DNA from: a virus
Taxonomy: Duplodnaviria > Heunggongvirae > Uroviricota > Caudoviricetes
Length of the DNA stretch: 64,000 nt
Direction: 5' to 3' (one strand)
IMG/VR virus record: IMGVR_UViG_3300037423_001636
Coordinates: 141,169-205,168 of that record
Shown: positions 15,655-25,029 of the stretch, in pieces
Position numbering within the stretch: the first letter of the stretch is position 1
Layout of the letters: the number at the start of each line of letters is the position of its first letter
Position numbers and translations under genes: made by a program
Notes under the pieces: model-generated
Database searches by the model: none
What the model was told of the DNA's origin: nothing
The model's input: the letters and a program-made list of their open reading frames with translations, nothing else

Positions 15655-15745
15655 GGGTCGGTGCCTAGAGTAGCGATTAGCTCGGCCTTTTAAGCCGCCG
15701 CGGGTCACACCGCCATCGGGGGTGCGAGTCCCTCCCGACCCACCA
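15655..15745 (+). tRNA. tRNA-Leu(TAA), class II
   Basis: Perfect acceptor GGGTCGG/CCGACCC. Anticodon loop TTTTAAG. Long variable arm. T arm GGGGG-TGCGAGT-CCCTC. Encoded CCA. Confidence 0.6.
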
Positions 15746-15751
15746 ATTTAC

Positions 15752-15826
15752 GGCGTGTTCGTCAAGTAGTAAGACCGGAGCTTGCAAACCTCCTATACGC
15801 TGGTGCAAATCCAGCACGCGCCTCCA
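15752..15826 (+). tRNA. tRNA-Cys(GCA)
   Basis: Acceptor GGCGTGT/ACGCGCC. Anticodon loop TTGCAAA. T arm GCTGG-TGCAAAT-CCAGC. Encoded CCA. Confidence 0.5.
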
Positions 15827-15976
15827 CTCTCCCCTCTGGGCTCTGCGCTTCAGCAGGCGTCTGACCAGTATGCGGGCCGACAAGGCAAACCGCGAAGGAT
15901 GCGAGGAACCATCGTTGTTGGTGAGGCTCTAGAGCCGAACTGACTATAGCCCCGACGTATACTGGGGCAGAATTTC

Positions 15977-16059
15977 GGGGGATGGGAATGCTATAGTGTG
16001 TTCGCCTGTTTCGCAAACAGGATATTAACAGTCCGGGGCAGATCCGGAATCCTCCACCA
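15977..16059 (+). tRNA. tRNA-Ala(CGC)
   Basis: Acceptor GGGGGAT/ATCCTCC with a G3:U70 alanine identity pair. Anticodon arm CCTGT-TTCGCAA-ACAGG. T arm TCCGG-GGCAGAT-CCGGA. Encoded CCA. Confidence 0.6.
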
Positions 16060-16143
16060 TTTTAACACACTGTTCATAAGGCACTTCTGTGATTTGTAGG
16101 TGGGTTGCACACAACCTCCACCATATAGCGTGTAAACCTATGC

Positions 16144-17007
16144 GTGGCAAAAAGACCTACAGTAACATTGGTGTGCGCATATACTGGAGAGACATTCGAG
16201 AAAGATCGTCGAGAATACCATCGTCAGCTTCGTAATGGGGCCACTCACTTTTACAAGGACAGTAAAGCAGCTGCTTTGGCCAGCGCTGAGGCAAGACGAC
16301 TGAAGCCAGTAGATAGGATTTGTCCACATTGCGGAAACACTTTCGAGGTGATACCGAGACGCCGGGCGGCGACATTTTGTTCTTCTCGTTGCGCTGCCCA
16401 CTATGGGCATGATCAGCTTAAAGCGAATCCGGAGCGAATGCTTACATTTCAAGAAAATGCGTCTGCGGCAGGAAAGAAAGCGTGGGCCGCCGGAAAACAC
16501 GATAACGCCATTCATCGAAATGGGCGTCGTCGCGCAAAAATCGAATCGCGTGGTTGCGCGGTGTGTGGTGCTGGGTTCGAATGCAAAGACAACAGCAAGC
16601 GCAAAACCTGCGGCAAGCCAGAATGCAAAAGGGAGGCTACTGCTCGCGGAGTTAGAGCCAACCCCAATTGTGGTGGAGAAAGCAATTATAGACGCTACAG
16701 ATACAAAGACATTTTGTTTGATTCGGCGTGGGAGCTTGAGATCGCTCAGTGGATGGACGGGGTTGGTATGCAATGGATTCGAGACAAAAAGATCTGGTTT
16801 CGCTGGACAGATCAAAATGGCACGATTAGACGTTATCACCCAGACTTCTACTTGCCCAGTTTTAATATTTATCTAGATCCCAAGAACAAGTTTCTACTGG
16901 AACGAGACGCTTTCAAGCTAGAGGCTGTGAAACGTGAGCATGGCATCAATCTCGTTTGGGGGAGTAGGGAAGAGATTTTAGTCTTCCTTCAGAATCTATT
17001 GGGGTAG
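16144..17007 (+). CDS. Putative homing endonuclease (N-terminal zinc ribbons + C-terminal PD-(D/E)xK-like nuclease domain) inserted in the tRNA array
   Basis: 287 aa. There are several CxxC pairs (CPHCG, CAVCG, CGKPEC). The C-terminus reads DSAWELEIAQWMD...YHPDFYLPSFNIYLDPKNK...EHGINLVW, the restriction-endonuclease-like pattern of phage homing endonucleases. It is the only ORF inside the tRNA array. Confidence 0.5.
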   Translation: MAKRPTVTLVCAYTGETFEKDRREYHRQLRNGATHFYKDSKAAALASAEARRLKPVDRICPHCGNTFEVIPRRRAATFCSSRCAAHYGHDQLKANPERMLTFQENASAAGKKAWAAGKHDNAIHRNGRRRAKIESRGCAVCGAGFECKDNSKRKTCGKPECKREATARGVRANPNCGGESNYRRYRYKDILFDSAWELEIAQWMDGVGMQWIRDKKIWFRWTDQNGTIRRYHPDFYLPSFNIYLDPKNKFLLERDAFKLEAVKREHGINLVWGSREEILVFLQNLLG

Positions 17008-17089
17008 TGGCACGACAAGTAAGGCACCGCGTTTGCAATGCGTAAGAGCGTAAGCTCGAATAGGGGCGCGATACCCCTCTACTCCACCA
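17001..17089 (+). tRNA. Class II tRNA-like unit; anticodon unresolved (loop TTTGCAA, possibly TGC)
   Basis: Acceptor GGGGTAG/CTACTCC. T arm AGGGG-CGCGATA-CCCCT. A variable-arm hairpin GAGC-GTAA-GCTC is present. Encoded CCA. The D and anticodon arms are imperfect. Confidence 0.4.
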
Positions 17090-17222
17090 TCTTGGGTATC
17101 CAATCCCGTGGCTAGAGGCCACCGTTTGGGCCGCGATAGCGTCCACCAATTTGGCTAGCGACCTTCGGGTGTCTAGCTCCCGTTTGAGTCGGGCGTTCCG
17201 CGGTGGCGATAAACCCCTTTGT

Positions 17223-17300
17223 GTGAGCGTGGGCCAGATAGCAGGCCGCCATCCTTCCAAGCTGGTTTTTACGCGGATGCGAGTTCCGCCGCTCACTCCA
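17223..17300 (+). tRNA. tRNA-Gly(TCC)
   Basis: Perfect acceptor GTGAGCG/CGCTCAC. D stem GGCC/GGCC. Anticodon loop CTTCCAA. T arm GCGGA-TGCGAGT-TCCGC. Encoded CCA. Confidence 0.5.
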
Positions 17301-17431
17301 CTTTCCCGTCCTGAGAACAAAGGCCCATTGGGACTAGCTAGCATGATTCTGGTGGGGTCAGCAAAGGCTATGGACCCGCGGTCCATATCGGATGGCTCAG
17401 CCGGATTGCAACGGCACGGGAATTCACTTTT

Positions 17432-17518
17432 GGGTTAGTCACATAGCAGCAATTGTAGCGCACTGTAAATGCGCCGAGCTAACGCTCTCCGAAGGTGCGA
17501 GTCCTTCCTAGCCCACCA
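17432..17518 (+). tRNA. tRNA-Tyr(GTA), class II
   Basis: Acceptor GGGTTAG/CTAGCCC. Anticodon arm GCGCA-CTGTAAA-TGCGC. Long variable arm. T arm GAAGG-TGCGAGT-CCTTC. Encoded CCA. Confidence 0.6.
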
Positions 17519-17523
17519 TTTTC

Positions 17524-17598
17524 GGCCCTGTCATCCAACAGTCAGGATGTCCGCTTGATAGGCGGGTCATATCGGTGCGAATCCGTTCGGGGCTACCA
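17524..17598 (+). tRNA. tRNA-Ile(GAT)
   Basis: Acceptor GGCCCTG/CGGGGCT. D stem ATCC/GGAT with loop AACAGTCA. Anticodon arm TCCGC-TTGATAG-GCGGG. T loop TGCGAAT. Encoded CCA. Confidence 0.6.
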
Positions 17599-17602
17599 TT
17601 TT

Positions 17603-17673
17603 AGGTCCGTGATGAAGCATCAACAGAGCCTCCAAAACTCTGGACGAGGGAGCGTTACCTTCCGGATCTGCCA
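17603..17673 (+). tRNA. tRNA-like unit with an apparent 9-nt anticodon loop (CCTCCAAAA)
   Basis: Acceptor AGGTCCG/CGGATCT. T arm GAGGG-AGCGTTA-CCTTC. Encoded CCA. The anticodon arm CAGAG-CCTCCAAAA-CTCTG has a 9-nt loop. Confidence 0.35.
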
Positions 17674-17814
17674 TTTTATTGCTGGGTCAATTAACCGATC
17701 TATTCCAACCTAGGTATCGGTTAGTTCGATACCGAAAGGTGTCTACAGCAGCCAATTCCTCGTCAATAAACCGAGAACGGAAGGTAAGACAGCGCCGGGT
17801 CAAATGCTGCATAC

Positions 17815-17887
17815 GGAGTCAGACCTAGTGGTCAGCGTCGCCTGAAGAGCGAAGCAGAGTGGGATGCGATCTCCCCGGGCTCCACCA
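17815..17887 (+). tRNA. tRNA-Phe(GAA)
   Basis: Acceptor GGAGTCA/GGGCTCC (6 of 7 positions paired). Anticodon loop CTGAAGA. T loop TGCGATC. Encoded CCA. Confidence 0.55.
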
Positions 17888-17993
17888 TTTTCTATTGCAG
17901 CCACAAGCCGTATGACGCTAAAGGTCCTCATAAGTCCTGCTTCGAAAGGAGCTATGCCCGGTGAAACTCCGCGGGGTCTGCAACCATTTTTAT

Positions 17994-18068
17994 ACAGACG
18001 TGGGTCATTAGCTGATCGCTCGGCTTGGGACCGAGATTAAGTGAGTGCGATTCTCACCGTCTGTACCA
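17994..18068 (+). tRNA. tRNA-Pro(TGG)
   Basis: Perfect acceptor ACAGACG/CGTCTGT. D stem GGTC/GATC. Anticodon arm CTCGG-CTTGGGA-CCGAG. T arm GTGAG-TGCGATT-CTCAC. Encoded CCA. Confidence 0.65.
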
Positions 18069-18168
18069 TTTTGATCCAACGCATGGAGGGGTGAAACTCT
18101 GTCGAGCTACTCCCCGGTTGTGCAGATAGCCGTTCGACAGCTGGCTATCATTTGGGTCAATTTATTTT

Positions 18169-18242
18169 GGGCTATTGTTGAATGAGTATCATAGGAATCT
18201 GTCTAATTCCAATAGCGAGTGCGAGTCTCGCATAGCCCGCCA
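18169..18242 (+). tRNA. tRNA-Asp(GTC)
   Basis: Perfect acceptor GGGCTAT/ATAGCCC. Anticodon arm GGAAT-CTGTCTA-ATTCC. T arm GCGAG-TGCGAGT-CTCGC. Encoded CCA. Confidence 0.6.
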
Positions 18243-18527
18243 TTTTAGCCGCACGCATTCTCTAAGATCCTTGGGGTCTTTCGGTCTCATGGGAGACGTG
18301 TTGTTGAACCGTCAGTTCAACTGATGGACTTGACGGTCCATGGCCTCCCTTTCTCTCGTGGCATAGCTGAAGCGGTACCGGTCCGCCCAGCTTCTGGCTT
18401 GCGCTGACGCCGCCCGCTTTGCGGCTTAGGGTGGCAGCCGAATCCGCCGTGCTCCTGTTGTAGGCGGGGATTAGCTCCTGCCGGTCAGGCAACGCGAATC
18501 GCGGTAGTCACGAGAGGATCTTTTTAC

Positions 18528-18603
18528 GGACGCTTGACCCAGCAGCTACGGTACCTGCCCTACACGCAGAGGTTCGGGGGTGCGAGTCCCTCAGCGTCCA
18601 CCA
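18528..18603 (+). tRNA. tRNA-Val(TAC)
   Basis: Perfect acceptor GGACGCT/AGCGTCC. Anticodon loop CCTACAC (position 33 is C). T arm GGGGG-TGCGAGT-CCCTC. Encoded CCA. Confidence 0.55.
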
Positions 18604-18610
18604 TTTTTAT

Positions 18611-18688
18611 TCCCGTCGAGGAGTCTAGCGACACCGGCGCACTGTTAATGCGTGTTCGAGCATGGAGCGTAACCATGGGCGGGAGCCA
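18611..18688 (+). tRNA. tRNA-Asn(GTT)
   Basis: Acceptor TCCCGTC/GGCGGGA. Anticodon arm GCGCA-CTGTTAA-TGCGT. T arm CATGG-AGCGTAA-CCATG. Encoded CCA. Confidence 0.55.
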
Positions 18689-18692
18689 TTTC

Positions 18693-18767
18693 GGATCGTT
18701 CGTCTATCAGTTAGGACAGAAGCCCGACATGCTTCAGAGAACCGTGCAACTCGGTTACGATCCACCA
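18693..18767 (+). tRNA. tRNA-Val(GAC)
   Basis: Perfect acceptor GGATCGT/ACGATCC. Anticodon arm GAAGC-CCGACAT-GCTTC. T arm AACCG-TGCAACT-CGGTT. Encoded CCA. Confidence 0.6.
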
Positions 18768-18771
18768 TTTT

Positions 18772-18846
18772 CGGGATATGGCCTAACAGTAGGGCGCTAG
18801 TCTGGGGGACTAGAGTGCGCCGGGGCAGCACCGGCTATCCCGACCA
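18772..18846 (+). tRNA. tRNA-Pro(GGG)
   Basis: Perfect acceptor CGGGATA/TATCCCG. Anticodon arm CTAGT-CTGGGGG-ACTAG. T arm GCCGG-GGCAGCA-CCGGC. D loop AACAGTA. Encoded CCA. Confidence 0.6.
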
Positions 18847-18852
18847 TTTTAA

Positions 18853-18928
18853 CGGTGTGTATTGTCAAGGGCAGACGGCCTTGTTCGGAACGAGGAGGTT
18901 GGGATATCGTAATTCCCCACGCCGACCA
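18853..18928 (+). tRNA. tRNA-Pro(CGG), with a canonical-type elbow
   Basis: Acceptor CGGTGTG/CACGCCG. Anticodon arm CCTTG-TTCGGAA-CGAGG. T loop ATCGTAA (T55 C56). D loop AAGGGCA (G-rich). Encoded CCA. Confidence 0.6.
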
Positions 18929-18932
18929 TTTT

Positions 18933-19046
18933 GGCTCTAAAGTTCAGCGCAGTCGTCACGAGGTTGATCGCTGGTTGATGCGCGCGAGAAGAACGCCCAC
19001 CCTGATCGAGTGGGAGGCACGGGTGAAATACCCGTTGGAGCCGCCA
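18933..19046 (+). tRNA. Over-long (114-nt) tRNA-like unit; internal arms unresolved
   Basis: Acceptor GGCTCTA/TGGAGCC with an encoded CCA. T arm ACGGG-TGAAATA-CCCGT. The body is ~35 nt longer than a class II tRNA, so it may be an insertion or two fused units. Confidence 0.3.
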
Positions 19047-19052
19047 ATTTAC

Positions 19053-19126
19053 GGACCCATAATGTAGAGTAGCATTCACGGCTTTGAACCGTTGCAGTCT
19101 AGGTGCAAGTCCTAGTGGGTCTGCCA
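19053..19126 (+). tRNA. tRNA-Gln(TTG)
   Basis: Acceptor GGACCCA/TGGGTCT. Anticodon loop CTTTGAA. T arm CTAGG-TGCAAGT-CCTAG. Encoded CCA. Confidence 0.55.
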
Positions 19127-19132
19127 TTTTGT

Positions 19133-19206
19133 TGGCTCCTAGTGTAATAGCAGCACGACACTCTCTGAAAGTGTTTGTGTGGGTGCGACTCCCACGGAGC
19201 CTGCCA
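19133..19206 (+). tRNA. tRNA-Gln(CTG)
   Basis: Acceptor TGGCTCC/GGAGCCT (position 1 is unpaired). Anticodon arm ACACT-CTCTGAA-AGTGT. T arm GTGGG-TGCGACT-CCCAC. Encoded CCA. Confidence 0.5.
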
Positions 19207-19211
19207 ATTTC

Positions 19212-19287
19212 GGGGATGTAGCTCAGCCAGTAGAGCGCCTGCATGGCATGCAGTAGGTCGTGGGAGCGAAGCCCATCATCTCCACCA
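19212..19287 (+). tRNA. tRNA-Ala(GGC)
   Basis: Acceptor GGGGATG/CATCTCC with G3:U70. D arm GCTC-AGCCAGTA-GAGC. Anticodon arm CCTGC-ATGGCAT-GCAGG. T loop AGCGAAG. Encoded CCA. Confidence 0.65.
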
Positions 19288-19317
19288 ATTTCAGTTGCAG
19301 ACGTTCGCTGTTCGTCC

Positions 19318-19430
19318 ATATCCGGACACAATGTCCGGATAAATGTCCGGATAGAGGAAGTTCGCTCGTGCTCCACTCGTAGCGGCAGAGTCTGCCATGT
19401 CTGGATATGTCCGGATTATGGCCGGATTCG
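19318..19430. promoter_or_regulatory. Palindrome/iteron cluster on the core TGTCCGGAT (operator- or origin-like)
   Basis: A perfect palindrome ATCCGGACA-CA-ATGTCCGGAT lies at about 19319-19341. Direct repeats follow: AAATGTCCGGATAG (19343), ATGTCTGGAT (19398), ATGTCCGGATT (19408) and GGCCGGATT (19421). The cluster sits in a ~340-nt gap without tRNAs. Confidence 0.5.
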
Positions 19431-19440
19431 CTAACGACCG

Positions 19441-19620
19441 CCCATCCGCACTAACCCGAATAAGCTGAGAGCGTGAGTGGCTCTTTGAAGCATGGTTGGG
19501 GCAGTCACCGGGTAAAGCCGTGACCATCGTTGCGACCGTCGATCGCCCGGTGAGAGAAATGAACGTCACTTAGGGAGACGATACCTGAGTTACAGAAGGG
19601 CGGCTATCGCGACTGAATAT
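19441..19620 (+). ncRNA. Candidate structured non-coding RNA (not tRNA-shaped) inside the array
   Basis: A 5' CCGCCC pairs with a 3' GGGCGG about 165 nt apart. Internal hairpins include GAGAGC-GTGAGTG-GCTCTT and TCACCGGG...CCCGGTGA. The unit ends ...ACTGAATATTTT with no CCA. Confidence 0.3.
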
Positions 19621-19625
19621 TTTAC

Positions 19626-19704
19626 GGTGCTCAAGCTACAGTAGACGGGCAACTCCCTCTTAAGGAGACCATTCGTGAGGCTGCAACTGCCTCGGGCACC
19701 ACCA
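19626..19704 (+). tRNA. tRNA-Lys(CTT)
   Basis: Acceptor GGTGCTC/GGGCACC. Anticodon loop CTCTTAA. T arm GAGGC-TGCAACT-GCCTC. Encoded CCA. Confidence 0.45.
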
Positions 19705-19709
19705 ATTTT

Positions 19710-19794
19710 GCGGTTCATACAAACCAAAAGGGGCACAGGTCATATGAGTGCTGAATATGGTTGAGTTTGGGTGAAATTCCCGGACGCCGCACCA
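19710..19794 (+). tRNA. tRNA-like unit (85 nt); anticodon unresolved
   Basis: The T arm TTGGG-TGAAATT-CCCGG and the acceptor 3' strand ACGCCGC with CCA are clear. The 5' strand GCGGTTC pairs at only 5 of 7 positions. Confidence 0.3.
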
Positions 19795-20104
19795 ATTTAG
19801 AGTGAGAATCAACGCATCCCAATGGGAGCAGCTAACGAGCTTAGCACTCACTCTATCCATCTTGTGTGACGGAATAACGTTTATCGTTAGGCGTAACGTG
19901 ATCGGTTGCCGAAAAGGTGACTGACGCAGGATAGACTGAACAGGAAAGGCGGATTGTCGTATGAGGTTGGCCAACCTCAGCGGGAATCGCTCTAAGGTAT
20001 TATCTCTGATAACGACCTTGGTTTTGGGGCGACGGCCCCTTCTAGCCTAAGCTCCTATTCGGTTGAAGCCTTGGGAGTAGTCAGGATTCTCCCCACATAT
20101 TTGC

Positions 20105-20192
20105 AGGAGGGTGGCTCGACAAGTAAGGCAACGGTTTCATAAGCCGTGGGGAGAAATCCCTTATACGGGGGCAGTACCCGTTCCTCCTACCA
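20105..20192 (+). tRNA. Class II tRNA with apparent anticodon CAT (loop TTCATAA)
   Basis: Acceptor AGGAGGG/TCCTCCT. The D region TGGCTCGACAAGTAAGGCA is shared with the unit at 17001. Anticodon arm ACGGT-TTCATAA-GCCGT. Variable-arm hairpin GGGA-GAAA-TCCC. T arm ACGGG-GGCAGTA-CCCGT. Encoded CCA. Confidence 0.45.
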
Positions 20193-20198
20193 ATTTAC

Positions 20199-20273
20199 GC
20201 CGCCAACTCATAGAAAGCGATGAACTGACTTGGTAAGTCAGGCAGCAGGGCGCAAGTCCCTGTGGTGGCTCCA
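20199..20273 (+). tRNA. tRNA-Thr(GGT)
   Basis: Acceptor GCCGCCA/TGGTGGC. D stem TCAT/ATGA. Anticodon arm CTGAC-TTGGTAA-GTCAG. T arm CAGGG-CGCAAGT-CCCTG. Encoded CCA. Confidence 0.65.
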
Positions 20274-20346
20274 TTTTGATCCTGTACACAGGATCATACA
20301 GCGGTTGACAGTCCCCGCTGGGAGTGGTTAGAGTCCACAGGACCGA

Positions 20347-20429
20347 GCCGATGTGGTGGAACGTATACACAACAGGTCGAGAGCCTGTCGCCGCAAGGAT
20401 TGGGGGTGCGAGTCCCTCCATCGGCACCA
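20347..20429 (+). tRNA. tRNA-Leu(GAG), class II
   Basis: Perfect acceptor GCCGATG/CATCGGC. Anticodon arm ACAGG-TCGAGAG-CCTGT. 13-nt variable arm. T arm GGGGG-TGCGAGT-CCCTC. Encoded CCA. Confidence 0.6.
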
Positions 20430-20435
20430 ATTTAT

Positions 20436-20520
20436 GGGCAGTTGGCGTAACAAGCAGCCGCGCGAGTCTTAGAAGCTCGTGGAGAAATCCGTATGGGTGC
20501 AATTCCCTTACTGCCTACCA
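20436..20520 (+). tRNA. tRNA-Leu(TAG), class II
   Basis: Acceptor GGGCAGT/ACTGCCT. Anticodon arm CGAGT-CTTAGAA-GCTCG. 13-nt variable arm. T loop TGCAATT. Encoded CCA. Confidence 0.6.
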
Positions 20521-20526
20521 ATTTAT

Positions 20527-20611
20527 GCGCGTATGGTGGAACTACTATACACAGCAGTTTCAGGAACTGCCGACTTCGGTCTTGGGGGTGGAAATCCCTC
20601 TACGCGCACCA
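20527..20611 (+). tRNA. tRNA-Leu(CAG), class II
   Basis: Perfect acceptor GCGCGTA/TACGCGC. Anticodon arm GCAGT-TTCAGGA-ACTGC. 13-nt variable arm. T arm GGGGG-TGGAAAT-CCCTC. Encoded CCA. Confidence 0.65.
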
Positions 20612-20745
20612 ATTTCCCCGTAGCTGAGAGAGATGCAAGCGCCATATCGAAACGTCGCAAGATGGATTCCGCAAGGACGGTATGGGACGATGTGCAAACA
20701 TCAGAACAGAGTGGAACTCACACTCTCGGGGAAAAATCTTTTCAC

Positions 20746-20823
20746 GGCCCGTTAGTATTACGTTCGCTAGATCGCTGCCCTTTCAAGGCAGAGGAGACGG
20801 AGCATCACCGTCACGGGCTGCCA
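20746..20823 (+). tRNA. tRNA-Glu(TTC)
   Basis: Acceptor GGCCCGT/ACGGGCT. Anticodon arm CTGCC-CTTTCAA-GGCAG. T arm GACGG-AGCATCA-CCGTC. Encoded CCA. The D region is oversized. Confidence 0.5.
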
Positions 20824-20828
20824 ATTTT

Positions 20829-20903
20829 CCCCTCGTCTTCTATACAGTAGGAAAACAGATTCTCAATCTGAAAAAGCGGATGCAAGTTCCGCCGAGGGGA
20901 CCA
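20829..20903 (+). tRNA. tRNA-Glu(CTC)
   Basis: Perfect acceptor CCCCTCG/CGAGGGG. D loop TATACAGTAG. Anticodon loop TTCTCAA. T arm GCGGA-TGCAAGT-TCCGC. Encoded CCA. Confidence 0.6.
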
Positions 20904-20907
20904 ATTT

Positions 20908-20961
20908 GACTCCACGAAAACTATCAAGTTAGCGAGGGTGAGAATCCCTTTGGAGTCGCCA
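20908..20961 (+). ncRNA. Mini tRNA-like unit (54 nt): acceptor stem + T arm + CCA, with the D and anticodon arms replaced by a short hairpin
   Basis: Perfect acceptor GACTCCA/TGGAGTC. Discriminator G and an encoded CCA. T arm GAGGG-TGAGAAT-CCCTT. The central 19 nt fold only as AACT-ATCA-AGTT. Confidence 0.4.
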
Positions 20962-20967
20962 ATTTAC

Positions 20968-21057
20968 CGGCTCGTGCTTGGAATGTATACAGCGGGGTCT
21001 TAAAAACCTTGGCTCCTTCAATGGAGATTGTGGGTGCGAGTCCCATCGGGCCGACCA
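20968..21057 (+). tRNA. Class II tRNA, Leu-like (anticodon loop CTTAAAA, TAA)
   Basis: Acceptor CGGCTCG/CGGGCCG. Anticodon stem GGGGT/ACCTT (two G-U pairs). 19-nt variable region. T arm GTGGG-TGCGAGT-CCCAT. Encoded CCA. Confidence 0.4.
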
Positions 21058-21216
21058 ATTTGAGTGTAGTGTAACAGTGAGCACGTTGGTGAGAGCAGGT
21101 TTCCTCAATCGTGACACCGCTGGCTCATAACTGGCAAGGACATGATTTGATAACTGTAAGCCTTGAATACATGCCAAAGGTCCGGTGCAATTCCGGCGCT
21201 CAACCTAAATTTTCAT

Positions 21217-21300
21217 GCCGTTGTGGTGAAATAGTAAACACAGTAGTCTCAAAAACTACCGACGAAAGTCTTGTGGGCGCGACTCCCACCTTCGGCACCA
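21217..21300 (+). tRNA. tRNA-Leu(CAA), class II; acceptor imperfect
   Basis: Anticodon arm GTAGT-CTCAAAA-ACTAC. 13-nt variable arm. T arm GTGGG-CGCGACT-CCCAC. Encoded CCA. Acceptor GCCGTTG/CTTCGGC has two U-U mismatches. Confidence 0.45.
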
Positions 21301-21468
21301 ATTTCACGGTCATTGAGGGCGACGAAATCAACCCATCCGAGGCAAAGTCGAGCGACCTGAGCCGTGAATCCATTATGGTCCCGTGTCGCAGCAGACCCGA
21401 GAGATTTATACCCTCTAGCGCGCCAGATTAGCGCCGTGATCAGGGGCAGCACCTGACGGGACTACCAA

Positions 21469-21570
21469 TTTCTCTGTTCCCGAAGGAGTGCATTCCAAAG
21501 TAGCCCATGCACGGGGCGGTGAGGTTCTATCGCGATCATACAGAGCTTTTGACCCGCGCGAACAGAGATT
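21469..21570 (+). ncRNA. About 100-nt structured RNA closed by a 9-bp terminal helix (first of the Ro60-upstream structured-RNA series)
   Basis: A 5' TCTCTGTTC pairs with a 3' GAACAGAGA about 85 nt away, followed by TTCTTTTT. Internal GTGCAT/ATGCAC and other hairpins are present. There is no CCA end. Confidence 0.35.
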
Positions 21571-21576
21571 CTTTTT

Positions 21577-21653
21577 GGCTCCTACTCCTAGATAGCGAGG
21601 ACCTCGCCTCGTAAGCGAGAGCTGAGGAGACTGCGATGTCTCAGGAGCCTCCA
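21577..21653 (+). tRNA. tRNA-Thr(CGT)
   Basis: Perfect acceptor GGCTCCT/AGGAGCC. D stem TCC/GGA. Anticodon arm CTCGC-CTCGTAA-GCGAG. T stem GAGAC/GTCTC with a 6-nt loop TGCGAT. Encoded CCA. Confidence 0.55.
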
Positions 21654-21656
21654 CTT

Positions 21657-22340
21657 TAGTCAGATAGCGAAACGCATCGGTTACTTCCGCCAACCCGTTG
21701 GGCTCACGCCCGACAAAAAGCCCGTGAACATGGAACCACGGCGACCGTGCAAATTATTCTTCTGACTTTCTACTTTGCTGTGGCGATAGGAAGCACTTAC
21801 TTCTTCGTTATTCAAATGAAACTGCCTCGCAAGGGGCGTCTGTGCATCCGCCTGTTCCCAGCAATCTATTTCCTGATGTCGTTAGAGTAAACGGTTACTT
21901 CATATTGGAATGATCGGTCTGCAAGGACCATACCCGTTCTCGCCTGTTACTCAGGAAAACTATTTTTCATTTTGCCGTAGCGAAGATCGCGGTTACTTCA
22001 TTGCAAACGAAACAACACCGCTATCGTTTATTCTCGGCAATCCACTTTCCTCAGTAGCGCAGATTGGGAGTTCTTCTATTATCACAAAAGGCCCGGTCGT
22101 CTATTCTCTGAGGGATCAATTTGGAGTGGCGTTAGAAAAGGAGTTCTTCGTATCATAAACGAGTAGTGAGAGTTCGAACCTCTCGGGGTCCACTATTACG
22201 GGCCTTTAGTGTAATGGCAGCACACTTTGGGGCGCAAGCCCCGCTCGCCTTTTCGCCTGTTCCCTCCAATCTTTTTCACGGTAGCGTAGAATACGATTTC
22301 TTCGTGAGTGCAACACCCCACCAGCCCCGCCATTACTTTT
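21657..22340 (+). ncRNA. Series of about six ~100-110-nt structured RNA modules immediately upstream of the Ro60 gene (candidate Y RNA / YrlA-like paralogues)
   Basis: Each unit repeats a hairpin of the form GCGxAGAxCGC followed by GTTACTTC or GTTCTTCGT (at about 21665, 21790, 21885, 21975, 22045, 22135 and 22280). Several units are closed by long-range 5'/3' pairing (for example AGTCAGA at 21657 with TCTGACT at 21762). The last unit has a canonical T arm GAGAG-TTCGAAC-CTCTC (22168-22184) and a CAT anticodon-like loop (22147-22163) but does not close into a tRNA acceptor stem. Confidence 0.4.
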
Positions 22341-22431
22341 TATGGGGCTGCTAGCGTATTCGCTAATTCTCCGTGATATTCTCTATACAATTCCCCACGG
22401 GCAATCAAGCTTTGTGGTGGCGCTAATAAAC

Positions 22432-23850
22432 ATGAAGACCAATAAAAAGTCAGTATCGACATTCAAGACCGCCCCGGCCGCCAAGCGTGTTGCCGGTGGT
22501 TCCGGCGCTGTCGCCGACACGATTACTGCGGAGCAAACTCTCCGTCGTTGCGTGCTAACCAATCTCCTGTGGGAAGATTGTGCGTATGAATCCGGAGTGG
22601 AGATCGCACAAAAAATCCGCGAGACCATTCCGCAGGTTCCCGCCGATCGCGTCGCAGCAATCGCCATCGAAGCGCGCGGCCAGCAAAAGCTCCGCCACGT
22701 TCCGCTGCTCCTCGTTCGCGAGATGGCGCGGTTGGATACACACCGCCATGTCGTGGCTGACACTCTTCCCCAGATCATTCAGCGGGCCGATGAGCTTGCT
22801 GAGTTTTGCGCAATCTGGCAGAAGGACGACAAAAAGCCGTTGTCCAAGACCCTATCAGCGCAAGCCAAGAAGGGTCTGGCCCGCGCCTTCGTCAAGTTCG
22901 ACGAATATGCTCTTGCGAAGTACAATCGCGACAACGCGGTCAAGCTGCGCGATGTGCTGTTCCTTTGCCACGCCAAGCCGGAAAACAAGGCTCAAGAGAA
23001 GCTGTTCAAGCGGCTGATCAACGATGAGCTGAAGACCCCGGACACGTGGGAAGTTGAGCTGTCGGCCTCCACCGACAAGAAGGCTTCATGGACTCGTCTC
23101 CTCGAAGAGGCCAAGCTTGGCGCTCTAGCCTTCATCCGCAACCTGCGCAATCTGACTCAGGCTGGCGTCGAGAAGAATCTCATCCGAGACTACTTCAAGA
23201 CGGTCAACCCGGAACGCGTTCTTCCGTTCAACTTCTTGTCCGCAGTTCGTGAGGCTCCAGAATACACCGCTCAGCTTGAGACCCTCATGCTGAAGTGTCT
23301 GGCAACCTTCCCGAAGCTGAAGGGCAAGACGGTGTTTATTGTTGACGTGTCGGGCTCGATGACCAGTGGGTTAGCCGGCAAGTCGTCCATGAACCGACTC
23401 GACGCAGCAGCGGCACTGACTGCGCTGATGCGGGAAGTCTGCGAAGAGCCAGTTATCTACGCTACGGCTGGATGTGACGGTTCTCGCAAACACGAGACGA
23501 AGGAAGTCCCAGCGGCCCGCGGTTTCGCGCTGATGGAAGAGATTCGCAAGATGCAGCACTCCCTCGGGGGTGGTGGTATCTTCCTCTGCCAGAGCACGAA
23601 GTTCGTTAAGGAGCTGGAGAAGACGGCTGATCGGCTTATTGTCCTGAACGACAGCCAAGATTGTGACTATGTGAAGGACCCGAATCAGGCGGCAGCGTTT
23701 GGTCGGTTCAACTATCTCATGGACGTTTCTTGCCACACGAAGGGTGTAGCCTACAAAGCTTTCACTCACATCGACGGCTGGAGCGAAAGTGTGATTAACT
23801 TCGTATATGAGACGGAGCGCATGGCGCTTCAATCGCGGCAGAAGAAGTAG
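22432..23850 (+). CDS. rsr: Ro60 / Rsr orthologue (TROVE domain + C-terminal vWA domain)
   Basis: The N-terminal TROVE-like region reads ...RRCVLTNLLWEDCAYESG...HVPLLLVREMAR.... The C-terminal vWA/MIDAS reads KTVFIVDVSGSMTSG. The architecture matches Ro60. The start was moved from the six-frame ORF (22342) to the ATG at 22432 because the extension overlaps an RNA hairpin. Confidence 0.75.
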   Translation: MKTNKKSVSTFKTAPAAKRVAGGSGAVADTITAEQTLRRCVLTNLLWEDCAYESGVEIAQKIRETIPQVPADRVAAIAIEARGQQKLRHVPLLLVREMARLDTHRHVVADTLPQIIQRADELAEFCAIWQKDDKKPLSKTLSAQAKKGLARAFVKFDEYALAKYNRDNAVKLRDVLFLCHAKPENKAQEKLFKRLINDELKTPDTWEVELSASTDKKASWTRLLEEAKLGALAFIRNLRNLTQAGVEKNLIRDYFKTVNPERVLPFNFLSAVREAPEYTAQLETLMLKCLATFPKLKGKTVFIVDVSGSMTSGLAGKSSMNRLDAAAALTALMREVCEEPVIYATAGCDGSRKHETKEVPAARGFALMEEIRKMQHSLGGGGIFLCQSTKFVKELEKTADRLIVLNDSQDCDYVKDPNQAAAFGRFNYLMDVSCHTKGVAYKAFTHIDGWSESVINFVYETERMALQSRQKK

Positions 23851-24700
23851 CCTTCTGTATAGCAGCATACGCTTCCTCCTCGCTCGGAAAGTAGCCCACA
23901 AAAGCTCTTCCTAGCCGGGTTGGAAGCTGTGCTTTCCATGGGTCCCGAGTGCGCGCCTTCACTCGGGAAACCCCTTCAAATCTAGAGCTGAGCTTTAGCG
24001 CTTTGTCTCGAATCGTCATATAGGCGGCTTGCTTGCGAGGCAGAGCGAGATCGGTTCCAGAGCCCCAAATGTAGTCTCCCAGAGCATATACGGGCCGACG
24101 CCCGTTGACTCGGAAGACACTCCCTTTCCCTCGTTCGTTCGTTGTGATGTCGATTCGATATTCGACGCTGAGTCGTTTACAGAGATCGCTCAGAAAGGAC
24201 CAATCCTGATCGGCTGGTCCCGCAATCTGGATCTCATGAGTGCCAAATCGCGGGTCAACACATACGCATCCATCTCCATCAATCAATCCCAGATACCAGT
24301 AGCACTGTAGATGTGACGGGATGGTGTCTAGTATCGCCCGTGGAGAACTCGACTTAGAACAGTAGCCAAGAGCGCTCAGATGTTCGACGAGATAGTGGTT
24401 GGTTGTCGTAATCACCCACGCATTTTTCCACCCCTCATTTCGAGAGGGTTTAGAGTAGCATCCCCACCGCCCGGTGCGCAGCATAATGGGTCTGAAGTGT
24501 TCAACGTCTGGCGATGTCGTGGATAGGACTACGCTTTGTGTTCTATGTGTGTTTCGGATGTGCCCATCGGCCCAAAGCAGGCCGAGGATATAGGCGTGAA
24601 CAGGCTCTGTCACGTGAATGAATGGCTGTGGATTCACAGCGTATTGGTCGAACGGCTTGAGCCGGCGTTTGACTGGTCTGGGGATGGTATTGGTCTGCAT
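23795..24700 (-). CDS. LAGLIDADG homing endonuclease (two LAGLIDADG motifs, AP2-like C-terminus)
   Basis: Minus strand. The motifs are YILGLLWADGHI and YWYLGLIDGDGCV. An AP2-like DNA-binding tail GYFPSEEEAYAA follows. The gene is free-standing between the Ro60 gene and further tRNAs. Confidence 0.8.
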   Translation of the reverse strand: MQTNTIPRPVKRRLKPFDQYAVNPQPFIHVTEPVHAYILGLLWADGHIRNTHRTQSVVLSTTSPDVEHFRPIMLRTGRWGCYSKPSRNEGWKNAWVITTTNHYLVEHLSALGYCSKSSSPRAILDTIPSHLQCYWYLGLIDGDGCVCVDPRFGTHEIQIAGPADQDWSFLSDLCKRLSVEYRIDITTNERGKGSVFRVNGRRPVYALGDYIWGSGTDLALPRKQAAYMTIRDKALKLSSRFEGVSRVKARTRDPWKAQLPTRLGRAFVGYFPSEEEAYAAIQKATSSAAIEAPCAPSHIRS

Positions 24701-24753
24701 ACAGGATTGCGACTGGATTTACACGCATTCCGAGCAGAGTTTTATTGATTTTC

Positions 24754-24825
24754 GCCGATTGCTTCAGCAAGCCCGCGAGTTTTGTAAACTTGAGGAAGAG
24801 AGGGCAGCACTCTCAGTCGGCTCCA
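24754..24825 (+). tRNA. tRNA-Thr(TGT)
   Basis: Acceptor GCCGATT/AGTCGGC. Anticodon arm CGAGT-TTTGTAA-ACTTG. T arm GAGAG-GGCAGCA-CTCTC. Encoded CCA. The D region is short. Confidence 0.45.
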
Positions 24826-24831
24826 TTCTAT

Positions 24832-24920
24832 GGTGGTAGAGGCAGAAGTAACTCAAAGCACCGCCCTGTGAAGGCGGGTCCGCAAGGACATAGCGAGTGT
24901 GAGACTCGTCTACCACCCCA
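24832..24920 (+). tRNA. tRNA-His-like (GTG) with G-1 and a C73 discriminator, atypical body (long variable hairpin, weak D arm)
   Basis: Acceptor GTGGTAG/CTACCAC with an extra 5' G at position -1 and a C discriminator (the His identity set). Anticodon arm CCGCC-CTGTGAA-GGCGG. Variable hairpin GTCC-GCAA-GGAC. T arm GCGAG-TGTGAGA-CTCGT. Encoded CCA. Confidence 0.4.
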
Positions 24921-24926
24921 ATTTAT

Positions 24927-25001
24927 GGGCCTATAGTTCAATAGACAGAACCTCAGTTTGCGGAACTGACGATCCCAGTGCGAGTCTGGGTGGGCCTACC
25001 A
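24927..25001 (+). tRNA. tRNA-Arg(GCG)
   Basis: Acceptor GGGCCTA/TGGGCCT. Anticodon arm TCAGT-TTGCGGA-ACTGA. T arm CCCAG-TGCGAGT-CTGGG. Encoded CCA. Confidence 0.5.
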
Positions 25002-25029
25002 TTCTACGCTTGACTCCGGCCGCTAGGCT

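Follow-up and report, generated by a model that had tools for sequence, protein, structure and literature searches.

A tandem array of seven candidate Y RNA genes, one of them tRNA-like, upstream of a phage Ro60 gene

Introduction

Ro60 is conserved from bacteria to humans, and so are its Y RNAs. Here we describe a phage locus at which a gene for a Ro60 (Rsr) orthologue (22432..23850, + strand) is directly preceded by seven tandem modules, Y1 to Y7, that together fill 21658–22376 (0.72 kb) on the same strand and that we interpret as probable Y RNA genes. The locus lies in the 64 000-nt stretch at positions 141 169 to 205 168 of the IMG/VR virus record IMGVR_UViG_3300037423_001636 (Caudoviricetes), hereafter the window, whose numbering is used throughout unless another record is named. 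A preliminary description made from the DNA letters alone had proposed a Ro60 gene preceded by a series of Y RNA-like elements, and the present analysis supports that proposal in outline while redrawing the anatomy of the RNAs.

The Ro60 gene and its product

The 472-aa product combines a TROVE/HEAT ring with a vWA domain, the latter bearing the MIDAS motif (metal ion-dependent adhesion site) DVSGSM, of the DxSxS type, at residues 305–310, where it is invariant across 21 homologues. The Pfam TROVE model (PF05731) matches with an E-value of 9.3e-18, above its curated cut-off; the vWA_Ro60 match is weak and stays under its cut-off (17.6 versus 27.7 bits). Among PDB sequences the top match is phiRo60 of Thermus phage phiLo (9KOP/9L5Y, E = 3.5e-18), in which FLVDVSGSM aligns with FIVDVSGSM of the window protein, at an overall protein identity of only ∼20%. 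An AlphaFold model based on the alignment of 21 homologues has a mean predicted local distance difference test (pLDDT) score of 82.7, and when this model was compared with the PDB by Foldseek, all 13 of the best matches were Ro60 structures aligned over their full length, including phiRo60 (9KOP, E = 2.4e-18), Rsr of Deinococcus radiodurans (2NVO, E = 1.5e-12), Xenopus Ro60 with RNA (1YVP, E = 2e-12) and human Ro60. Full-length template modelling (TM) scores against 9KOP, 2NVO, 1YVP and 9NEN are about 0.6. By fold and MIDAS motif the gene is a Ro60 orthologue, and the TROVE-plus-vWA architecture with DVSGSM, as first recognized in the preliminary description, is borne out by the Pfam TROVE match, the phiRo60 alignment and the Foldseek comparison.

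The start called for this gene by the Joint Genome Institute (JGI), 22342, falls inside Y7. We have instead set the start at 22432 because the N-terminus MKTNxK is conserved, which corrects an annotation in which the Ro60 gene start overlaps Y7. The closest Ro60 homologues, at 57–73% identity, are encoded on metagenomic contigs. An IMG/VR search with the single Ro60 protein returned no relative, and a repeat search with the alignment as query did find relatives; nucleotide BLAST against phage records gave matches confined to the Ro60 gene.

Seven modules sharing one end

The seven modules are all on the + strand and 69–149 nt long; they occupy the stretch 55–774 nt upstream of the Ro60 start and are separated by TC-rich spacers of 4–13 nt (TTCTACT, TCTA, ACTATTTTTCATT, TCCACT, TCAAT and TCTTTT) that resemble the N-CCA-(A/T)TT trailers found 3′ of the tRNAs in the adjoining tRNA island. 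The repeats were found by eye and by a repeat search, and their grammar became clear only after we had read the DNA upstream of other Ro60 genes, namely those of Caulobacter phage CcrColossus, of Brevundimonas phage Papperlapapp and of the metagenomic contigs with the closest Ro60 homologues. A loose regular-expression scan produced many chance matches elsewhere in the window, and was hence used only to locate candidates.

Read from its 5′ end, a module, which folds as a rod, consists of helix P1, a bulged U, two base pairs (GG/CC), an internal loop, helix P2, the sequence UACUUCG and a variable apical part; its 3′ half then runs through the 3′ strand of P2 and GCCUGUUC[C/U], or a close variant, to the 3′ strand of P1. 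Across loci P1 has 4–17 bp and no conserved sequence, and within the window it has 6–8 consecutive pairs whose sequences are unrelated between modules. The 5′ core that follows P1 has the consensus U-[G/A][G/U]-[C/U]G-(N)-UA, and the asymmetric internal loop is conserved in sequence on both sides (5′ CG(N)UA, 3′ GCCUGUU). P2 starts with G-C and A-U pairs, after which comes (A/U)UACUUCG or a close variant, and the variable insert between the P2 strands ranges from 20 to 120 nt. The UUAC element, counterpart of the ‘YUAY’ described after the stem in YrlA, is present in Y1–Y4, with UUAC or AUAC in most members of the family. Minimum free energy (MFE) folds contain P1 in all seven window modules and P2 in six (it is missing in Y7). 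The conserved end is the sole part common to all modules, including more than 280 found beside Ro60 genes elsewhere.

The preliminary description had rightly noted the long-range pairing between 5′ and 3′ ends and the repeated motifs T[A/G]GCG..AGA and GTTACTTC/GTTCTTCG. It had, however, counted about six modules of 100–110 nt, where we find seven of wider length range, and had drawn a GCGnAGAnCGC hairpin in what is instead the 5′ strand of the internal loop together with the start of P2, which pairs with the 3′ side. The conserved 3′ motif of the modules, CGCCUGUUCC, had been missed.

Compensatory changes and a covariance model built from other loci

The proposed structure was evaluated on an alignment, A1, of 33 modules from ten other Ro60 loci, in which the variable insert was cut out and the cores aligned. 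Standard pairs are formed in 94.5% of its cells, each of the 16 modelled pairs shows changes on both sides, and the covariation score is 0.90, compared to ∼0.20 for shuffled alignments (none of 500 reaches the observed value) and 0.15–0.22 for controls in which the pairing partner was slid by 1–3 columns. With the seven window modules added (alignment A2), 93.9% of cells are paired and the score is 0.91. The two pairs beside the bulged U are never broken in A2: at the first, 33 modules have G-C and seven have A-U, and at the second, 38 have G-C and two have U-A. The A-U version occurs in Y1, Y4, Y5 and Y7, and the U-A version in Y3.

From A1 only, with the window modules excluded, we built a covariance model, R1, that incorporates the proposed structure. 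Searched against both strands of the whole window (a 128-kb search space) at E ≤ 10, R1 gives exactly six matches, all of them Y modules aligned at full length on the + strand with 43–54 bits (E-values from 9e-12 to 5e-9), and none outside the array on either strand. Switching off the cmsearch filters lowered the scores of modules with long inserts relative to the default and did not recover Y1. Six of the seven modules are recovered by a model to which the window contributed nothing, and the array is far beyond chance expectation.

The apical parts are of four kinds: a tRNA mimic, putatively of host type (Y6, described below), single-stranded loops rich in A, U and C (Y4 and Y5), hairpins capped by GNRA tetraloops (Y2 and Y3), and larger folds (Y1 and Y7). 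Y2 (21775..21864; R1 53.6 bits, E = 9.4e-12, full length) has an MFE fold with P1, bulged U, GG/CC and P2, and bears a GCAA-capped apical hairpin at 21825–21836. Y3 (21869..21958; 43.0 bits, E = 5.4e-9) has its GCAA hairpin at 21917 and shows a compensatory change to GU/AC in place of GG/CC (pair 9–61 is U-A). Y4 (21972..22040; 52.1 bits, E = 2.3e-11), with the 5′ motif UAGCGAAGA, and Y5 (22047..22115; 48.5 bits, E = 1.9e-10, aligned with no insertion) are each 69 nt and form long hairpins, the loop of Y4 being ∼23 nt and A/U/C-rich and that of Y5 rich in U, A and C. Y7 (22276..22376; 49.7 bits, E = 9.7e-11, fold z-score −3.4) has a larger apical part, with an 8-bp hairpin plus others, and ends 55 nt before the Ro60 ATG. 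Y1 (21658..21767) is divergent: its 5′ half is recognizable (UAGCGAAAC...GGUUACUUCC) and its 3′ motif degenerate (CAAAUUAUUCU), a P1 of 7 bp persists in its MFE fold (z-score −3.1), and in the alignment an A-U pair is maintained where other modules have GG/CC; we class it as a divergent, possibly decaying copy. A T arm and a D arm are both absent from Y1–Y5 and Y7. Judged from sequence and predicted fold, these six modules are minimal Y RNAs, Y1 in degenerate form.

The same module beside other Ro60 genes

We surveyed 80 contigs from IMG/VR with a gene for a Ro60 relative, accepting R1 matches at E ≤ 0.01. There were 151 matches, all on the Ro60 strand, and 74 of the 80 loci had at least one; per-locus counts were 0 (six loci), 1 (21), 2 (34), 3 (16), 4 (two) and 6 (one). 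Most matches (132) lie upstream of the gene, at a median distance of 190 nt, and 19 lie downstream; the median match length is 70 nt. A parallel survey of 80 genome loci with Ro60 from bacteria, mostly Acidobacteriota metagenome-assembled genomes, gave 132 matches in 64 loci, all on the gene strand, with up to four per locus and some more than 2 kb upstream of Ro60. The two surveys together yield 283 modules at 138 of 160 Ro60 loci, without exception on the gene strand, and the module also occurs at Ro60 loci that have no tRNA at all (e.g. contig L014). These counts are lower bounds, because R1 misses most modules longer than ∼135 nt. In CcrColossus (JX100810), reading by eye reveals eight tandem Y-like modules upstream of the TROVE gene.

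We take the module, from these sequence matches, to be the usual RNA linked to Ro60 in this subfamily, in cells as well as in phages. It accompanies Ro60 at most loci, usually in one to three copies, so the window array is a large case of a known partnership. The presence of several Y RNAs at one locus, which had seemed unusual in the preliminary description, is the rule; what is extreme is the number, the window's six to seven standing at the top of the range and among the largest sets per Ro60. The docking-site consensus, backed by covariation and missed by current Rfam models, retrieves hundreds of unannotated putative Y RNAs, both viral and bacterial.

Three observations concern individual comparison genomes. 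The 68-nt ‘tRNA-Gln’ annotated in CcrColossus (JX100810 109217–109284; L001 3119–3186) sits inside a YrlA-like module (L001 3110–3284) and is probably a misannotation. In Thermus phage phiLo (MH673673.1), R1 has a match just downstream of the phiRo60 gene (L096 3406–3469; 32.2 bits, E = 3e-7) that overlaps the start of a small annotated coding sequence and is distinct from the published upstream RNAs Yrl1 and Yrl2. Papperlapapp carries a permuted tmRNA among tRNAs ∼2.4 kb downstream of its Ro60 gene (L002 7742–7997; 60.2 bits, above the Rfam gathering threshold).

The tRNA-like module Y6 and its elbow

Y6 (22121..22269, + strand; R1 52.1 bits, E = 2.2e-11) encloses a set of tRNA-like arms within the common module end. 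P1 (22121–22126/22264–22269), the 5′ core UGGCGUUA (22127–22134), P2 (22135–22141/22248–22254) and the 3′ core GCCUGUUCC (22255–22263) surround, in order, a V hairpin (22147–22163), a canonical T arm GAGAG-UUCGAAC-CUCUC (22168–22184), an acceptor-like hairpin with a 7-bp stem and an 8-nt loop (22185–22206), U8 and A9 (22207–22208), a D arm GUGU-AAUGGCA-GCAC (22209–22223) and an extra GCAA hairpin (22229–22242). A circularly permuted tRNA-like layout of this kind defines YrlA (PMC4201824; 10.1101/312249), and Y6 is accordingly assigned, by predicted structure, as a YrlA-type Y RNA with a circularly permuted tRNA-like domain.

The T arm lies exactly where the preliminary description had placed it. 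The module that contains it was said to be the nearest to Ro60, and is in fact the second nearest, Y7 intervening; the acceptor stem, said to be unable to close, does close, as the hairpin between the T and D arms in the permuted order of YrlA; and the supposed anticodon-like arm with a CAT loop corresponds to the V hairpin, the loop of which is not conserved in orthologues.

Y6 aligns with YrlA-like modules of CcrColossus, Papperlapapp and contigs L004, L008, L012 and L013, and its D arm is nearly identical letter for letter in the L013 and L008 orthologues. Read by eye, the aligned sequences give the tertiary Levitt pair as A15:U48 in Y6, L013, L008 and L012, compared to G15:C48 in L004 and three CcrColossus modules, both positions changing together among the YrlA-type modules. 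The regular expression used for T and D arms skipped several modules, such that the table of Levitt pairs was compiled partly by eye; the pattern itself supplies the nucleotide at position 48 for six relatives and that at position 15 for two of these.

The canonical UUCG T loop of Y6 differs from those of the neighboring tRNAs, as had been remarked in the preliminary description: not one of the island's 22 tRNAs (window 15655–26410) has it. All 22 have G, not U, at T-loop position 55, their T loops being of types TGCRA (18), TGGRA (two), GGC (one) and CGC (one); two more island tRNA T loops have A at position 54 (AGCGA and AGCAT). None of the 22 has the D-loop GG, most having N-A-G, and all encode CCA. 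The pattern of G55 without a D-loop GG recurs in related contigs, in 10 of 10 tRNAs of L006 and 11 of 11 of L008, and is mixed in L004; the tRNAs of L013 and of Papperlapapp have a canonical elbow. The YrlA-type modules of these same contigs retain UUCGA and GG.

This difference between the Y6 elbow and the elbows of the phage tRNAs narrows the search for the binding partner of the former. One speculative explanation, to which we attach little weight, is that Y6 mimics the host tRNA elbow and not that of the phage: phage tRNAs would evade a host factor that reads the elbow, and the Ro60–Y6 complex would capture, decoy or recruit that factor. If so, the factor could be a tRNA-directed defense nuclease, or an enzyme of modification or processing; the G55 tRNAs of the phage would still work in translation, and the other six Y RNAs would serve further Ro60 targets.

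Elements surrounding the array

Three elements lie immediately 5′ of the array. Directly before Y1 is a tRNA-Thr(CGU)-like gene (21577..21653, + strand) that folds by MFE into a cloverleaf, has a T loop of only 6 nt (UGCGAU) and encodes its UCCA terminus. It is missed by ARAGORN and Rfam, has counterparts by eye at the corresponding position in L004 and L008, and may be a gene with one base deleted or an assembly error. Preceding it is a helix-closed structured RNA of ∼100 nt (21469..21570, + strand; z-score −1.8) that is not a Y module and has no match with R1 or Rfam; the 9-bp closing helix reported in the preliminary description is present. Its homologue in L008 (1946–2046) is 91% identical over 47 nt, and there the closing helix differs in sequence and still pairs. 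Next is a type-II-like tRNA gene (21377–21467) whose acceptor stem has 7 bp, whose variable arm is long and whose 3′ end reads ACCA; its T loop, GGCAGCA, also occurs in the initiator-like tRNA at 18772–18843. Comparison of the window with L004 reveals compensatory changes in the T stem and in the acceptor stem; this gene too is missed by ARAGORN and Rfam. We considered a reading of it as an ochre-suppressor tRNA with anticodon UUA, and dropped it because the register shared with L004 5376–5465 and L008 ∼1575–1672 gives UAU with A37.

Further upstream, an element closed by a helix (CACGG...CCGUG) at 21303–21375 folds no better than shuffled sequences (z-score −0.55); its ends are conserved in L004 (5117–5133 and 5200–5211) around a longer insert. 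Within the island, the tRNAs at 18528–18600, 18772–18843, 19212–19284 and 20829–20900 were found by Rfam and not by ARAGORN, the second of these having a C1/A72 mismatch like that of bacterial initiator tRNAs. A manA RNA motif at 19839–20103 scores below threshold (24.7 bits versus a gathering score of 55.2, E = 0.005).

On the opposite strand, a LAGLIDADG-type homing endonuclease open reading frame (ORF) (23795–24700, Pfam E = 3.9e-7) is convergent with the Ro60 gene and overlaps its last 56 nt. The corresponding regions of related contigs are interrupted by HNH-like ORFs (L004 9470–10120 and L006 5109–5789). An RNA ligase gene (25030..26079, + strand; Pfam RNA_ligase, E = 4.6e-33) lies in the same tRNA island 1.2 kb downstream of Ro60, and RNA ligase genes are near Ro60 in L008 and L014 as well. 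An RNA-repair context has been noted in jumbo phages (PMC7824862), with which the window RNA ligase fits.

Proposed function and alternatives

We propose that the seven modules of 21658–22376 are Y RNA genes arrayed in tandem and serving the Ro60 encoded directly downstream, and judge the probability of this reading to be about 0.8; it draws on the Ro60 fold and MIDAS motif of the protein, the covarying core, the R1 matches, the linkage to Ro60 in both surveys and the YrlA-like order of arms in Y6, which likewise favor the earlier idea of tandem Y RNA-like genes, one of them tRNA-like. The array would share its transcript with the tRNA genes upstream and, probably, with the Ro60 mRNA; we infer co-transcription with the tRNA island because no promoter or terminator signal was found inside the array. 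Nucleases that process tRNAs would release the modules, as suggested by the short TC-rich spacers and their resemblance to tRNA CCA trailers. Ro60 would then dock on the conserved module end, a putative docking site and the likely counterpart of the GNCGAA/CGAA motif of bacterial YrlA and phiLo Yrl RNAs and of the bulged helix that animal Y RNAs carry. The variable apical parts would act as effector ends, gating the Ro60 cavity or tethering the ring to different partners, most plausibly to the host 3′–5′ exonuclease polynucleotide phosphorylase (PNPase), the precedents being Deinococcus, Salmonella and Thermus phage phiLo. In this way one phage Ro60 may be retargeted to several tasks of RNA surveillance or RNA decay during infection, alongside the phage tRNAs and RNA ligase.

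Several observations weigh against this proposal. Y1 is not detected by R1 with default settings or with filters off. A match to Rfam Y RNA models, suggested as a check in the preliminary description, which listed the lack of a covariance-model hit among its grounds for refutation, was not obtained: YrlA (RF02553, gathering score 69 bits) stays unmatched at E ≤ 10 in searches of 12 kb and of 1.1 kb, as does Y_RNA (RF00019) at E ≤ 10 in a 1.1-kb search of the array, and these searches, like an Rfam scan of the whole window at gathering thresholds, place no family in 21300–22440. We ascribe this silence to the narrowness of the YrlA model, because it scores clear YrlA-like RNAs of CcrColossus at only 30–42 bits, under threshold. 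The literal GNCGAAN0-1G motif has one or two mismatches in most modules: Y4 reads AGCGAAG, the first G being replaced by A together with its pairing partner, and Y2, Y3, Y5, Y6 and Y7 read G/A-G/U-C-G-(N)-U/C-A-G, with one or two mismatches. Scans of the array for sigma-70 promoters and intrinsic terminators found nothing above shuffled expectation, so that the transcription units are inferred. PNPase is named as effector by analogy only, and the contig is metagenomic in origin. Lastly, an alternative GGCG/CGCC pairing, as in the Rfam YrlA drawing, is compatible with most of the sequences, though not all, so that the docking-site geometry given here is provisional; with 17 broken cells, versus none for GG/CC, it was rejected as the model pairing and kept as at most a second conformation.

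An improbable alternative, yet the one that survives best, is that the modules are cis-acting Ro60-binding sites in the long 5′ leader of the Ro60 mRNA, through which Ro60 would regulate how its own mRNA is translated or how stable it is, and that they are not freed as Y RNAs. The modules do all lie on the gene strand, mostly directly upstream (at the short median distance seen in the viral loci), and between Y7, close to the ATG, and Ro60 our scan found no terminator. However, 19 of the 151 viral modules are downstream of Ro60 and some bacterial ones are more than 2 kb upstream; the characterized relatives YrlA/YrlB and Yrn1/Yrn2 are stable RNAs processed from polycistronic precursors (PMC4201824); and seven copies with differing apical domains, one a tRNA mimic, fit the role of a leader poorly. 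The roles of cis-acting leader and free Y RNA may also hold together.

It is very unlikely that the modules represent tRNA genes in decay, or repeats derived from tRNA, that arose by duplication within the island and are now functionless. Such an origin would suit an array located at the end of an island of more than 22 tRNA genes, with tRNA arms in Y6, spacers like tRNA CCA trailers and a degenerate-looking Y1, but the conserved part of the module is not tRNA-like, compensatory changes maintain both of its helices, ARAGORN and the Rfam tRNA model find no tRNA gene in 21658–22376, and the module tracks Ro60 genes and not tRNA genes (as at L014 and in both surveys). Least credible of all is that the region encodes small proteins with repeated peptide motifs, since, although ORFs of 47–92 aa overlap the array (including 21910–22158 on the + strand) and the JGI Ro60 start at 22342 overlaps Y7, three scanned array ORFs of 62–92 aa have no Pfam match at E ≤ 1, the small ORFs cross module borders, and module number and order vary among relatives while RNA pairing is kept by compensatory changes.

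Relation to known Ro60–RNA systems

Set beside characterized systems, the proposed Y RNA array has its closest solved protein relative in phiRo60, and in phiLo, too, phage-encoded Y-like RNAs adjoin the gene. For binding its two upstream Yrl RNAs, the phiLo Ro60 uses a CGAA motif situated in a stem-bulge. Single changes to this motif weaken binding three- to four-fold, and Ro60–Yrl forms a ternary complex with host PNPase (PMC12135203). The two published phiLo RNAs, Yrl1 and Yrl2, both upstream, have no R1 match, the model matching instead a third candidate just downstream of the gene. With metazoan Y RNAs (RF00019) the modules share a terminal stem with a conserved bulged helix, a variable effector loop and the occurrence of several paralogues per genome; the bulged nucleotide is U in the window modules and C in the metazoan RNAs, the motifs differ, and no sequence similarity was found.

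In 254 bacteria and 22 phages, YrlA RNAs lie on the strand of Ro60 and no more than 4 kb from it, and both YrlA and YrlB bind Rsr (PMC4201824). In D. radiodurans and Salmonella, Y RNAs tether Rsr to PNPase; two or more Y RNAs have been studied per species, and these are cut from precursors that they share with tRNA or rsr (PMC4201824). The window modules resemble YrlA in their position beside Ro60 on the same strand, in the pairing of their 5′ and 3′ ends, in a 5′ motif near to, though in most modules one or two mismatches from, GNCGAAN0-1G and in a YUAY-like element after the stem; Y6 alone has in addition the V hairpin, T arm, closed acceptor-like stem and D arm in the same order. They differ from YrlA in that six of the seven lack the tRNA-like domain, in that Y6 has an extra GNRA hairpin after the D arm, and in the strong conservation of the 3′ strand carrying the CGCCUGUUCC motif, whereas just the 5′ strand can be recognized in the Salmonella and Mycobacterium smegmatis RNAs (PMC4201824).

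The minimal modules find their nearest parallel in the additional Y RNAs encoded beside Ro60, YrlB of Salmonella and M. smegmatis and Yrn2 of D. radiodurans, which are long hairpins with small loops and a Ro60-site motif and which come from one precursor with YrlA, tRNA or rsr (PMC4201824). Y4 and Y5 fit this pattern, a likeness set by description and not by sequence comparison. Where those species have two known Y RNAs, the window would have five or six minimal ones arranged head-to-tail, in several apical designs, along with its YrlA-type Y6; the array may thus be regarded as a panel in which one docking site is fused to different effector ends.

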